From a virus (Duplodnaviria > Heunggongvirae > Uroviricota > Caudoviricetes): a stretch of 7,213 nucleotides of DNA. The position numbers were made by a program, and so were the translations under genes. Within the stretch, counting starts at the first letter, position 1; each line of letters opens with the position of its first letter. Under the pieces are notes generated by a model. That model saw only the letters and a program-made list of their open reading frames with translations, searched no databases and was not told the DNA's origin. This document shows, piece after piece, positions 906-4,205 of the stretch. The stretch spans positions 1-7,213 of IMG/VR virus record IMGVR_UViG_2529292873_000004. One strand, written 5' to 3'.

Positions 906-1010
906 ATGTCGGATGATATTTCACTGGCAATGGAAGGTGCGCTGGCTGTTATTGCTGTTGTGGGCGTTTACTGCCTGGTTGTGTTTTTGATGGATCGACT
1001 AGGGAACTGA
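906..1010 (+). CDS. small hydrophobic membrane peptide (34 aa), unknown function
   Basis: ATG 906 preceded by AAGGAGG (895-901). Product MSDDISLAMEGALAVIAVVGVYCLVVFLMDRLGN has an acidic N-terminus and one predicted transmembrane helix. Below the ORF-track length cutoff. Confidence 0.4.
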   Translation: MSDDISLAMEGALAVIAVVGVYCLVVFLMDRLGN

Positions 1011-1040: not shown

Positions 1041-1051
1041 GGTAAAAACGG

Positions 1052-1080
1052 TTTGCGGTAAAGCGAGAGTTAAGTAGAAT
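1052..1080 (+). promoter_or_regulatory. putative hok mRNA promoter (-35 TTGCGG about 1053-1058, -10 TAGAAT 1075-1080)
   Basis: The -10 sits 5-7 nt upstream of position 1085, where the 5' segment complementary to the mRNA 3' end begins. No experimental start site. Confidence 0.35.
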
Positions 1081-1139
1081 TGCTGCGGGTGCTTGAGGCT
1101 ATCTGCCTCGGGCATGAACACCAACGGCAGATAGAGAAA

Positions 1140-1207
1140 AGCCCCAGTTAACATTACGCGTCCGGCAAGACGCTTAACATTAATCTGAGGCCATATCTAT
1201 GCTCTAC
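1140..1207 (-). ncRNA. sok: putative Sok-like antisense RNA
   Basis: Minus-strand promoter-like elements: -35 TTGCCT (plus 1237-1242), 17-bp spacer, -10 TAACCT (plus 1214-1219), giving a start near 1206 and a transcript antisense to the mok SD and start codon (1187-1201). 3' end not defined; no clean terminator identified. Confidence 0.3.
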
Positions 1208-1411
1208 ACACGTAGGTTAGCCTCTTACGTGCCGAAAGGCAAGGAGAAGCAGGCTATGAAGCAGCAAAAGGCGATGTTAATTGCCCTGATCGTCATCTGT
1301 TTAACCGTCATAGTGACGGCACTGGTAACGAGGAAAGACCTCTGCGAGGTACGAATCCGAACCGGCCAGACGGAGGTCGCTGTCTTCACAGCTTACGAAC
1401 CTGAGGAGTAA
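1199..1411 (+). CDS. mok: Mok-like overlapping reading frame (in-frame N-terminal extension of hok)
   Basis: ATG 1199 with GAGG (1187-1190) at 8-nt spacing, in frame with hok and sharing its stop. Same architecture as I recall for E. coli MokC/HokC. Confidence 0.5.
   Translation: MLYTRRLASYVPKGKEKQAMKQQKAMLIALIVICLTVIVTALVTRKDLCEVRIRTGQTEVAVFTAYEPEE
1256..1411 (+). CDS. hok: Hok/Gef family type I toxin (51 aa membrane peptide)
   Basis: ATG 1256 with AGGAG (1242-1246). Product MKQQKAMLIALIVICLTVIVTALVTRKDLCEVRIRTGQTEVAVFTAYEPEE: single TM helix plus the conserved TRKDLCEVRIRTGQTEVAVF core of Hok/Gef/RelF proteins; closest to HokD/RelF from memory. Confidence 0.85.
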   Translation: MKQQKAMLIALIVICLTVIVTALVTRKDLCEVRIRTGQTEVAVFTAYEPEE

Positions 1412-1478
1412 GAGACCAGGCGGGGGAGAAATCCCTCGCCACCTCTCATGTGTCAGGCATCCTTAACGCACCCGCACT

Positions 1479-1501
1479 AAACCCGCTTCGGCGGGTTTTT
1501 T
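1479..1501 (+). terminator. rho-independent terminator at the 3' end of the hok transcript
   Basis: AAACCCGC-TTCG-GCGGGTTTTTT: GC-rich stem, 4-nt loop, 6-T run. Immediately downstream of the segment (1461-1475) complementary to the mRNA 5' end. Confidence 0.6.
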
Positions 1502-1686
1502 GTTGCGCGCTGAATGCGCAGGGTGAAAAATAACCATATATTTGATTATATACACAACAAAAAATAAAAGTCATTGTACCTGCACATTAAATAATCAAAT
1601 ATACGGCGTGAAATAAATATTTTTCAGATTAATATTTTTGTCTCTATGTGGATATAACCGTTTGTACTTATAAACTCGGAGGCATC

Positions 1687-3550: not shown

Positions 3551-3626
3551 GGCCCTTTAGCTCAGTGGTGAGAGCGAGCGACTCATAATCGCCAGGTCGC
3601 TGGTTCAAATCCAGCAAGGGCCACCA
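3551..3626 (+). tRNA. tRNA-Ile (anticodon CAU, presumably lysidine-modified to read AUA; tRNA-Met not formally excluded)
   Basis: 76 nt GGCCCTTTAGCTCAGTGG…CTCATAA…GGTTCAAATCC…AGGGCCACCA. Perfect 7-bp acceptor stem, canonical T-arm, anticodon loop CTCATAA, encoded CCA. Very similar to E. coli ileX as I recall it; position matches ileZ of Stx phages. Confidence 0.8.
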
Positions 3627-3635
3627 TATCACATA

Positions 3636-3713
3636 CCGCCATTAGCTCATCGGGATAGAGCGTCAGCCTTCGAAGCTGGCTGTGCGGGGTTCGGAGTCCC
3701 CGATGGCGGTCCA
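3636..3713 (+). tRNA. tRNA-Arg (anticodon UCG by my fold), atypical
   Basis: 78 nt; perfect 7-bp acceptor stem CCGCCAT/ATGGCGG, D-arm GCTC…GAGC, anticodon stem TCAGC/GCTGG, loop CTTCGAA, encoded CCA. Unusual: C1:G72 start and an apparent 8-nt T-loop (TTCGGAGT). Confidence 0.6.
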
Positions 3714-3726
3714 TTATCGGTATTCT

Positions 3727-3803
3727 GCGTTGTTAGCTCAGCCGGACAGAGCAATTGCCTTCTAAGCAATCGGTCACTGGTTCGAATCCAGTACAACGCG
3801 CCA
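3727..3803 (+). tRNA. tRNA-Arg (anticodon UCU, reads AGA)
   Basis: 77 nt GCGTTGTTAGCTCAGCCGGACAGAGCAATTGCCTTCTAAGCAATCGGTCACTGGTTCGAATCCAGTACAACGCGCCA. Perfect acceptor stem, canonical T-arm, anticodon loop CTTCTAA; resembles E. coli argU. Confidence 0.85.
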
Positions 3804-4089
3804 CACCACACTTATCTGCCCTGACTCTCTTTTGCGGGCTTTTTATTACAGGAAAGACACCGGACAGTGAAATGTTAAATGCCTCACAATTCAGGTAGTC
3901 GACTGTTGCCTGACATGCTGAGCGTTTGTTAAAAAAATCCTGCATGATGAATCCCCCTGGGCGGCGGGGCATAATGACAGATGTTTGGTTGCGTATTGTA
4001 TAGGCAAGTTGCGGATTCTGTCTGGTCATTGCAGAATTCACCGGGAGGCACCCGGCATCATGCTGTATACAGAGATTAGGCATATATCC

Positions 4090-4114
4090 AGGCTCTCATC
4101 GCAGGAGCCTTTTT
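4090..4114 (+). terminator. possible weak rho-independent terminator (+ strand)
   Basis: AGGCTC-(9-nt loop)-GAGCCT followed by TTTTT (4110-4114). Confidence 0.35.
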
Positions 4115-4120
4115 ACATGC

Positions 4121-4145
4121 AAAAAAAGCCCGAGTAGGTTCGGGC
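4121..4145 (-). terminator. rho-independent terminator acting on the minus strand
   Basis: Plus strand shows A7 (4121-4127) then GCCCGA-GTAGGT-TCGGGC (4128-4145); on the minus strand this is a 6-bp GC-rich hairpin followed by U7. No T-run on the plus side. Confidence 0.5.
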
Positions 4146-4179
4146 AACAGCATGAGATACTTGCATTGTCATTTTTATC
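4121..4179 (-). ncRNA. candidate small RNA (about 60 nt) on the minus strand; hypothesis only
   Basis: Minus-strand promoter-like elements: -35 TTGCGC (plus 4210-4215), 18-bp spacer, -10 TAAAAT (plus 4186-4191), predicted start near 4179, ending at the minus-strand terminator 4121-4145. No convincing ORF. Confidence 0.2.
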
Positions 4180-4205
4180 GTGTGGATTTTAACCAGGGTT
4201 TATAA

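Follow-up and report, generated by a model that had tools for sequence, protein, structure and literature searches.

The segment 1043–1505 of the 7,213-nt stretch analysed here (the window) is very probably a self-contained hok/mok/sok type I toxin–antitoxin cassette that a Rac-like lambdoid E. coli prophage carries as a moron in its nin-equivalent region. A sequence-only reading had proposed a complete hok/mok/sok locus with an in-frame Mok-like extension, a tac/fbi-type 5′/3′ pairing, a leader hairpin and a minus-strand promoter, and we found all four features where it had placed them. The assignment of a complete locus is supported by matches to Pfam, to PHROG and to the Rfam leader model, by 94% gap-free identity to the hokW–sokW locus and by a covarying tac/fbi pairing. 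"Nin region" is also a fair label, with DUF551 early genes on one side and NinB/Orf-like, YbcO-type nuclease and Q-like antiterminator genes on the other. The cassette is an ordinary complete copy of a well-known system, nearly identical to copies annotated and tested earlier in Shiga-toxin phages. It carries little weight as a discovery: such cassettes are annotated in the 933W and VT2-Sakai records and are reported to be prophage-enriched, and experiments have characterised a copy with 94% identity. The gain is one of annotation. The sole RefSeq label at the locus is the 51-aa "hokD" CDS, to which mok, Sok, both promoters and the RNA switch elements can be added, each with coordinates:

1053..1080, plus strand: putative hok/mok mRNA promoter, proposed from its sequence, with −35 TTGCGG at 1053–1058, a 16-nt spacer and −10 TAGAAT at 1075–1080
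1087..1501, plus strand: predicted full-length hok mRNA, ~415 nt, from the Rfam model start, the R1-type alignment and the terminator
1087..1098, plus strand: tac (translational activator element), GGGTGCTTGAGG, pairing with fbi in the full-length RNA or with ucb in the truncated RNA; conserved in 35 loci
1099..1134, plus strand: leader hairpin of 9 bp, CTATCTGCC at 1099–1107 with GGCAGATAG at 1126–1134, from the fold
1137..1207, minus strand: predicted Sok antisense RNA, 71 nt, from gap-free alignment with the SokW misc_RNA of VT2-Sakai and from K-12 sokC
1139..1147, plus strand: ucb (anti-Shine–Dalgarno box), AAGCCCCAG, of which 1141–1147 pairs with 1185–1191 (containing the mok Shine–Dalgarno sequence) in the full-length fold
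1187..1190, plus strand: mok Shine–Dalgarno sequence GAGG, 8 nt 5′ of the ATG at 1199; invariant in 35 loci
1199..1411, plus strand: mok open reading frame, 70 codons, in frame with hok and ending at the same stop codon
1214..1242, minus strand: Sok promoter, with −35 TTGCCT (1242→1237), a 17-nt spacer and −10 TAACCT (1219→1214); predicted start at 1207
1220..1226, plus strand: dcb (downstream complementary box), GCCTCTT, assigned by homology
1241..1246, plus strand: hok Shine–Dalgarno sequence AAGGAG, 9 nt 5′ of the ATG at 1256, paired to 1223–1228 in the full-length fold
1256..1411, plus strand: hok toxin gene, 51 aa, from the Pfam and PHROG matches and identity to HokD
1419..1440, plus strand: 3′ UTR stem-loop, GGCGGGGGA-GAAA-TCCCTCGCC, from the fold and covariation
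1461..1473, plus strand: fbi (fold-back inhibitory element), CCTTAACGCACCC, pairing with tac; compensatory changes in 35 loci
1479..1501, plus strand: intrinsic terminator, AAACCCGCTTCGGCGGGTTTTTT, from a terminator scan and the fold

Our observations at the window locus cover these elements and the way they are conserved and covary, together with the predicted folds and the near-identity to a tested locus. The comparison of the 51-aa product with Hok proteins, which had been suggested as a check, placed it in the Hok/Gef family: it matched Pfam HOK_GEF (PF01848) at 2.9e-23 with 81.6 bits (cutoff 22) and PHROG 251, "MokW-like host killing", at 7.8e-33. The product shares every residue with K-12 HokD (100% identity) and 92% with HokW, the 4 changes among the 51 residues all being C-terminal; HokW itself shares 44% identity with R1 Hok (PMC8621323). 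HokD, the same protein as the window Hok, served as a toxic control in a preprint (10.1101/2025.08.07.668861), and HokW is toxic and its effect rescued by SokW (PMC8621323). By analogy, the window Hok would be toxic and its Sok neutralising. The Mok-like extension described from 1199 was recovered as an open reading frame of 70 aa (1199–1411) in the hok frame, with 57 nt, or 19 codons, lying upstream of hok. A mok frame reading through the hok start was present in 34 of 35 related loci (25 in frame, 7 in the +1 frame and 2 short).

The closest tested relative is hokW–mokW–sokW of the Stx2 phages Sp5/VT2-Sakai and 933W (AP000422, AF125520; Takada et al. 2021, PMC8621323). Over 436 gap-free bases (1043–1478) it is 93.8% identical to the window, with 27 base differences, and the hok promoter −10, tac, the leader hairpin, ucb, the Sok hairpin, the Sok promoter and the hok Shine–Dalgarno sequence are all identical. 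The two loci also have in common a mok of 70 codons, a Hok of 51 aa and a Sok RNA of 71 nt, and sokW, mokW and hokW are all annotated in VT2-Sakai. The terminators differ, because the sequence past 1478 differs. Genomic position differs as well: the cassette of Sp5 and 933W lies near the phage right end, beside tail-fibre-region genes, whereas that of the window lies in the nin region.

We then folded the predicted mRNA. The 5′ end at 1087 was placed from the Rfam model start, the alignment with the R1-type locus and a distance of 7 nt past the −10 hexamer. The proposed pairing of the 5′ segment GCGGGTGCTTGAGG (1085–1098) with CCTTAACGCACCCGC (1461–1475) appeared in both the minimum free energy (MFE) and the centroid structures of 1085–1501, and the fold of this whole segment had z = −8.1, with none of 100 shuffles folding as well. 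Counted from 1087, tac and fbi form a helix of 12 bp that includes one G–U pair (1095–1464), leaves one C (1467) bulged and has a pair probability of 0.999. The outer pairs, 1085–1086 with 1474–1475, lack conservation in relatives; they are probably located upstream of where the transcript starts. At 1464 the window carries T where most relatives, including hokW, carry C, giving the G–U pair and a slightly weaker lock. The 9-bp leader hairpin claimed for 1099–1134 was likewise present in the fold and covaried in relatives.

For comparative support, we aligned 35 related loci from Escherichia, Kluyvera, Citrobacter, Pantoea and Photorhabdus. These were picked by the motifs GGG[TC]GCTTG and GC[AG]CCC, so that the inner six pairs were forced to be pairable save at the Y/R position; this selection does not bias the covariation seen at pair 4/405 or in the outer tac/fbi half. 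Across the alignment, the whole structure was 86% paired, compared with 40–44% when the 3′ partners were slid, and 36 pairs changed on both sides, a number reached in 0 of 500 shuffles. Column-wise, pairs 8/400, 10/398 and 12/396 look broken because MAFFT moved the Photorhabdus fbi by one column; when the duplex was recomputed per sequence, all 35 loci paired, and the 12-bp tac/fbi duplex is kept through changes such as U–A to C–G and G–C to A–U. The leader hairpin (helix 2) was 95.6% paired across the 35 loci, with three pairs changing on both sides, and the 3′ UTR stem-loop (helix 17) was 97.5% paired with two covarying pairs. In helix 5, formed by ucb and the mok Shine–Dalgarno region, pairs 61/101, 62/100 and 65/96 covary; this covariation cannot be assigned to a single role, because on the opposite strand the same pairs make up the stem of the Sok terminator as well.

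These data bear on whether the 5′/3′ complementarity and the leader hairpin might be chance products, devoid of regulatory function, of GC-rich untranslated sequence flanking a Hok gene, a reading that we consider barely credible. Composition alone occasionally suffices, since a duplex of the first 14 nt with the distal mRNA was equally good in 8 of 1,000 dinucleotide shuffles. Against this stand the retention of the pairing in every locus through compensatory substitutions, its near-certain ensemble probability and its location at the exact alignment position of R1 tac and fbi. The comparative data refute the chance reading, short of the covariation being an artefact of the alignment.

The folds also outline a switch. 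The leader scored 111.7 bits with Rfam RF01794 ("sok", CssrC), whose gathering threshold is 59, model positions 1–157 corresponding to 1087–1261 of the window on the plus strand. In silico, the nascent RNA of 39–49 nt formed a metastable hairpin in which tac pairs with 1105–1115 (−19.0 kcal/mol). In the full-length fold the mok Shine–Dalgarno sequence is sequestered by ucb, and forcing a tac/ucb pairing costs 10.8 kcal/mol. When the RNA was truncated to 1087–1447 in silico, the MFE structure paired tac (1087–1094) with ucb (1139–1145) at an ensemble probability of ~0.33, and a tac/ucb stem is likewise present in the Rfam consensus. The partner stem of mok Shine–Dalgarno and dcb is drawn in the Rfam alignment as GAGGCC with GCCTC, with several flagged mismatches. 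In the truncated MFE structure the mok Shine–Dalgarno sequence pairs elsewhere than with dcb, an outcome that depends on the arbitrarily chosen 3′ end (1447), and in the folds computed here dcb pairs with the hok Shine–Dalgarno region.

On the minus strand, the Sok candidate spans the Shine–Dalgarno sequence and start codon of mok, and its predicted fold consists of a free 5′ tail and a long hairpin followed by UUUU (z = −4.8). The promoter that had been postulated to drive an antisense RNA across the mok start is present as a candidate, TTGCCT/17 nt/TAACCT, and is identical to the sokW promoter region of VT2-Sakai, within a stretch (1212–1281) that is identical to the hokW–sokW locus throughout. 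The sokW promoter has been inactivated by mutation (PMC8621323). The Rfam "sok" match was rejected as evidence for the Sok strand: in K-12 the model matches the hokC strand and not the annotated sokC strand. Because the model describes the hok-sense leader, the plus-strand match does not locate Sok.

A generic sigma-70 consensus scan recovered neither the hok nor the Sok promoter. The hok/mok promoter is thus a proposal, its score lying under the threshold of that scan; in related loci a −10-like hexamer occurs at the position matching 1075–1080. A plus-strand TTAACA/TATGCT site at 1174–1203 from the generic promoter scan was set aside as unused, because homology to sokW, sokC and R1 puts the promoters elsewhere. 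At the other end of the transcript, the stem-loop at 1419–1440 is likely the protective 3′ end of the processed mRNA, a role assigned after R1 (PMC9841398).

Transcription, 3′ processing, Sok turnover and toxicity of the window copy are expected on the model of R1 and hokW–sokW, and the following course is proposed. The weak promoter at 1053–1080 would yield a stable mRNA of ~415 nt (1087–1501), with tac held in the metastable 5′ hairpin during synthesis. In the finished RNA, tac would pair with fbi, the mok ribosome-binding site (1187–1190) would be held by ucb (1141–1147) and the hok Shine–Dalgarno sequence would be paired; we propose that this closed full-length RNA is therefore untranslated and unbound by Sok. 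Slow 3′ trimming back to the stem-loop at 1419–1440 would remove fbi, allowing tac to capture ucb and free the mok start. Translation of mok from 1199 would then permit translation of hok (1256–1411) into a 51-aa inner-membrane peptide that may kill or lyse the cell. The unstable Sok of ~71 nt (1207→1137, minus strand), made from its own promoter (1242→1214), would pair with the processed mRNA around the mok start, leading to block and cleavage, and Hok would be made once Sok synthesis stops. Slow 3′ processing, cutting of the Sok–mRNA duplex by RNase III, and a short Sok and long mRNA half-life have been described for R1 (PMC9841398) and in part for hokW–sokW (PMC8621323).

When we compared the layout with other known loci, the R1/IncF hok/sok locus (parB) showed its elements in the window order: tac, hairpin, ucb, mok Shine–Dalgarno sequence, 19-codon mok extension, Sok promoter, hok, 3′ stem-loop, fbi and terminator. 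Both R1-type and window loci match RF01794. The R1-type Sok promoter reads TTGCGC, 17 nt, TATCCT, with like spacing and with TAACCT as the −10 of the window; in pairwise alignment, the first hairpin of the window is shorter and its Sok hairpin 19 nt longer. The R1-type locus is carried by a plasmid, whereas that of the window is carried by a prophage. In K-12 hokC/mokC/sokC (gef), mok is in frame, shares the hok stop codon and has a 57-nt extension, as in the window, and the Rfam match of hokC scores 118 bits. The annotated 5′ end of sokC lies 9 nt inside mok, which corresponds to 1207 of the window. The sokC hairpin is 18 nt shorter than that of the window Sok, and the fbi region of hokC is replaced, adjoining IS186.

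The same slot as in the window is occupied by the mok/hok of phages Rac (MN652886) and Rac-SA53 (KU052037), with early genes, mok/hok, DUF1367 NinB-like, YbcO and Q in that order. The Rac copy is 94.5% identical to the window over 1070–1505, terminator included, and Hok is 96–98% identical. The flanking small genes differ: hok is followed by rem in Rac and by an unrelated 70-aa PHROG 1813 reading frame in the window. Downstream synteny with K-12 rem was not found, the window reading frame at 1687–1899 being unrelated at the DNA level. K-12 hokD (relF) of the Qin prophage encodes an identical Hok, and its DNA is 97.7% identical over 1242–1500, which covers the hok Shine–Dalgarno sequence, the coding sequence, the 3′ stem-loop, fbi and the terminator. 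Everything upstream of 1242 is missing there, namely the hok promoter, tac, ucb, the mok start, Sok and its promoter, and relBE adjoins the break. The window holds an intact form that shows the full layout of a locus truncated in K-12.

As for the biological role, the cassette would most likely aid lysis and phage release when the window prophage is induced, after the example of hokW–sokW. That locus is a toxin–antitoxin system of type I by experiment: upon mitomycin C treatment SokW disappears and HokW appears, in this sole study of a prophage copy its presence hastened lysis and raised phage release twofold once the prophage was induced, and without the locus the phage yield halves (PMC8621323). 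The effect is only ~2-fold and belongs to a copy at another position in another phage (PMC8621323). Prophage retention and exclusion of other phages are further possibilities, by analogy. The sequence-only reading had suggested prophage addiction or abortive infection; this suggestion is an analogy with plasmid R1 only, and function is less settled than it proposed. On such a view, Hok would kill the cell once Sok is no longer made, either when the prophage is lost or when an infecting phage shuts off host transcription. As the main role we consider this unlikely. A stable mRNA opposed by an unstable antisense RNA would answer to any event that halts transcription. Post-segregational killing is known for R1 hok/sok, and the same locus, placed on a high-copy plasmid, cut T4 plating efficiency by 42% (Pecota and Wood 1996, cited in both PMC8621323 and the preprint). 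The preprint also finds hok genes ~4-fold enriched in prophages (10.1101/2025.08.07.668861). However, the T4 effect required the high-copy plasmid, no prophage-borne hok is known to produce either effect, and the tested prophage copy aided its own phage instead of blocking others (PMC8621323). In the preprint, hok is described as unenriched near defence systems, and the tested chromosomal hok loci are summarised as giving no post-segregational killing (10.1101/2025.08.07.668861).

It is also rather improbable, in our estimate, that the cassette is intact yet physiologically silent, never setting active Hok free in natural settings, and merely hitch-hikes with the prophage, like the chromosomal hok of K-12, E. 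coli C and ECOR24. Its abundance fits selfish spread: a 561-bp query matched at 10,999 places, distributed over 4,726 of the 5,426 E. coli genomes (at most 10 per genome). Its promoters are also weak by consensus. Yet none of the regulatory elements is damaged, purifying and compensatory selection on them is visible, and the 94%-identical hokW–sokW locus makes HokW and alters lysis and phage yield after induction (PMC8621323). Decayed copies look different, as in the bare 1242–1500 remnant of K-12 hokD and in K-12 hokC next to IS186.

Seven of the 27 differences from hokW–sokW fall in the patch 1192–1211, where the mok start and the 5′ tail of Sok lie; in the 35-locus alignment this stretch is one of the more variable. 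Tentatively, and with less than even confidence, this patch may be a specificity determinant that insulates the several cassettes sharing an E. coli genome from one another's Sok RNAs; a separate suggestion, held just as tentatively, is that the window represents the intact ancestor of the truncated hokD/relF. If 1192–1211 does set specificity, each prophage would control only its own toxin, and the cassette would be a private device for lysis timing or retention.

The locus at about 1043 to 1505, which the sequence-only reading had taken for a complete hok/mok/sok system, proved to be real and correctly interpreted, as judged from protein families, the mRNA leader, predicted folds and homology to hokW-sokW of the Stx2 phage VT2-Sakai. 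By homology, the cassette runs from just before its promoter (~1043) to its terminator (~1505) and is therefore a self-contained moron. The system is a textbook one, found where such loci are known to occur. Its elements were as follows.

1087-1098 (+), tac, the 5′ mRNA element
1099-1107 and 1126-1134 (+), arms CTATCTGCC and GGCAGATAG of the 9-bp leader hairpin
1141-1147 (+), box upstream of the mok Shine-Dalgarno sequence (ucb)
1187-1190 (+), mok Shine-Dalgarno sequence GAGG
1199-1411 (+), 70-aa frame; its final 51 codons, starting with the ATG at 1256, make up hok (MKQQKAMLIALIVICLTVIVTALVTRKDLCEVRIRTGQTEVAVFTAYEPEE, ORF listing)
1242-1214 (−), Sok promoter: TTGCCT (1242 to 1237), 17 nt, TAACCT (1219 to 1214)
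1419-1440 (+), conserved 3′ stem-loop
1461-1473 (+), fbi, the 3′ partner of tac

The hok ORF matched the Pfam family Hok/Gef (PF01848, 2.9e-23) and PHROG 251 ("MokW-like host killing", moron category, 7.8e-33). Comparison at the protein level, proposed earlier as a BLASTP check, showed a product identical to K-12 HokD. DNA homology to K-12 hokD, in contrast, covers only 1242-1500 and begins right after relE, so that K-12 keeps the hok Shine-Dalgarno sequence, coding sequence, fbi and terminator but has lost the promoter, tac, ucb, mok start and Sok. The window carries the complete form of the locus truncated in K-12 hokD.

The predicted in-frame Mok-like extension was also present, starting 57 nt upstream of the hok ATG, as it does in mokW/hokW and in K-12 mokC/hokC, where both share a stop codon. 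Among 34 relatives with an aligned start codon, mok was in the hok frame in 25, in the +1 frame in 7 (L010, L011, L023, L025, L028, L029 and L031 of our species scan, with the ATG 58 rather than 57 nt before hok), and a 19-codon ORF ending 4 nt into hok in 2 (L014 and L016). The +1-frame mok overlaps hok by 110-152 nt and encodes a different protein. Frame is thus no conserved property of mok in this family; the conserved trait is an ORF reading through the hok start, which fits the published view that mok translation matters and the mok product does not (PMC9841398). Within the toxin gene, TACGAA (1394-1399), part of TTACGAA at 1393-1399, was invariant in 35/35 aligned loci, and its TAC (1394-1396) is the Tyr47 codon. 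In the mRNAs of hokC, hokD and hokE, A-to-I editing by TadA recodes the corresponding codon to Cys (preprint 10.1101/2025.08.07.668861); the candidate for the edited base is A1395. The 1393-1399 segment pairs with the hok start region in the full-length fold.

For the antisense RNA, we regard homology to hokW-sokW as the decisive evidence. Window positions 1043-1478 aligned with hokW-sokW without gaps at 93.8% identity, and 1212-1281, including the whole Sok promoter, were identical. SokW, annotated as a 71-nt antisense RNA, maps to 1207 to 1137 on the minus strand, and the fold of the RNA predicted to start at about 1207 shows a free 5′ tail, then a long hairpin and UUUU. The R1-type locus has the same promoter geometry in a gap-free stretch of alignment (TTGCGC, 17 nt, TATCCT). 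This likeness and the identity to the sokW promoter bear out the minus-strand promoter proposed for an antisense RNA across the mok start; a consensus promoter scan missed this promoter. For hokW-sokW, Takada et al. (PMC8621323) demonstrated toxicity of HokW and its neutralisation by sokW under the sokW promoter; mutations in this promoter abolish protection, and SokW supplied in trans restores protection in part. Seven of the 27 base differences from hokW-sokW lie within 20 nt, 1192-1211, comprising the Sok 5′ tail and mok start. In the 35-locus alignment, 1192-1211 and the hairpin loops rank among the more variable stretches. This segment may confer specificity and so restrict cross-talk among paralogous cassettes.

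Rfam RF01794 ("sok") gave a full-length plus-strand match at 1087-1261 (111.7 bits; gathering score 59). In K-12, this family matches the hokC/mokC strand, whereas sokC is annotated on the opposite strand. RF01794 thus represents the leader of the hok mRNA on the sense strand; the match shows a conserved hok leader and was rejected as evidence for a Sok gene.

The leader hairpin and the segments 1085-1098 and 1461-1475 read as the earlier description gave them, and the long-range pairing it proposed appeared in both the MFE and the centroid structures of RNA 1085-1501 (fold z-score −8.1). Folded from the likely start at 1087, tac and fbi formed a 12-bp helix containing one bulge and one G-U (probability 0.999), the mok Shine-Dalgarno sequence was paired with ucb, and that of hok was also paired. 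Forcing a tac/ucb stem on the full-length RNA cost 10.8 kcal/mol, whereas in RNA cut at 1447, past the 3′ stem-loop, the MFE switched to this stem. Nascent RNAs of 39-49 nt formed a hairpin pairing tac with the next segment (−19 kcal/mol). These predicted folds match the three states known from the R1 hok mRNA, namely a metastable one, a closed one at full length and an open one after truncation (PMC9841398). The stem between the mok Shine-Dalgarno sequence and its downstream box (dcb), belonging to the open form, was not recovered in free folding.

Of 1000 dinucleotide shuffles, 8 gave a duplex equal to tac/fbi in strength, and a comparative test provides stronger evidence than this frequency. 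Scanning one genome per species yielded 53 hok loci, of which 34 non-identical, leader-bearing ones were aligned with the window. The full-length structure of the window was 86.4% paired on this alignment, compared with 40-44% when the 3′ partners were slid, and its 36 both-sided pair changes were reached in none of 500 shuffles. Within tac/fbi, pair 4/405 was U-A in 22 loci and C-G in 11, and pair 12/396 was G-C in 19 and A-U in 5. Computed per sequence, the 12-bp duplex was found in 35/35 loci (−17 to −24 kcal/mol), drawn from 17 different sequence combinations. The motif used to select loci predetermines part of the inner helix, so the evidential weight lies with the Y/R position and with the outer half. 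Position 1464 in fbi is T in the window and C in hokW, Rac-type and most other relatives, so that a G-C pair becomes G-U and the duplex is weaker (−17.6 instead of −19.8 kcal/mol).

Homology allows the regulatory mechanism, unlike the physiological role, to be stated with high confidence. The earlier suggestions for the role were addiction and phage exclusion, and the accounts of R1 hok/sok in PMC8621323 and 10.1101/2025.08.07.668861 describe post-segregational killing, together with a partial exclusion of T4 seen at high copy. As summarised in the latter, tested chromosomal hok loci show no post-segregational killing. In hokW-sokW, the closest relative with experimental data, SokW disappears and HokW appears after mitomycin C in a RecA-dependent manner, and deletion of the locus halves phage release (PMC8621323). 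Because of these induction data and the chromosomal loci, we rank a role as helper of lysis on induction first for this prophage, with addiction and exclusion as possible alternatives.

Upstream of the cassette lies a DUF551 gene, and downstream are a PHROG 1813 ORF, a DUF1367 protein (NinB/Orf in PHROGs), a YbcO-type nuclease and a Q-like antiterminator; given these flanking genes, the label "nin region" is reasonable. In phage Rac (MN652886), annotated mok and hok genes occupy this slot. A 561-bp region occurred at 100% identity in a prophage of E. coli O157:H7 493/89, where RefSeq labels "hokD" only, and matched 4,726 of 5,426 complete E. coli genomes, with up to 10 places in a genome (median 2). 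According to a preprint (10.1101/2025.08.07.668861), prophages are enriched for hok about 4-fold, and 9.3% of Escherichia phages carry it. Near-identical Hok (96-100%) on very short contigs or on records assigned to non-enterobacterial hosts, namely Acinetobacter idrijaensis (L017, 275 bp), Xanthomonas pisi (L022, 431 bp) and Actinobacillus phage vB_Apl-pPE4 (H16/H68), points to contamination from E. coli or to mis-assignment rather than to genuine transfer.

Directly upstream of the ~1043 boundary, 13 nt before the hok −35, is a perfect 22-bp palindrome (1019-1040, CGATATGGGAATTCCCATATCG) that may stop transcription of the upstream gene or bind a protein. Also just upstream of the cassette, 906-1010 (+) encodes a 34-aa hydrophobic ORF (MSDDISLAMEGALAVIAVVGVYCLVVFLMDRLGN; "hypothetical" in RefSeq) with no match in Pfam or PHROG. 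After the hok terminator, ahead of the PHROG 1813 ORF, a very AT-rich spacer (1530-1680) marks the cassette's right-hand mosaic boundary; it contains two minus-strand promoter-like sites (1574 to 1545 and 1627 to 1598). Farther downstream, Rfam matches to the sRNA STnc100 (3913-4120, +, 165.7 bits) and the anti-GcvB sRNA AgvB (4121-4180, −, 56.2 bits, just at the gathering score of 56) lie back to back between a tRNA cluster and a SASA-esterase gene. In Stx phages, this slot holds stx; there is no stx gene here. The cluster, downstream of the Q-like antiterminator (3551-3803, +), holds three tRNAs: the first is tRNA-Met (CAT) according to ARAGORN but tRNA-Ile according to RefSeq in 493/89, followed by tRNA-Arg (TCG) and tRNA-Arg (TCT).
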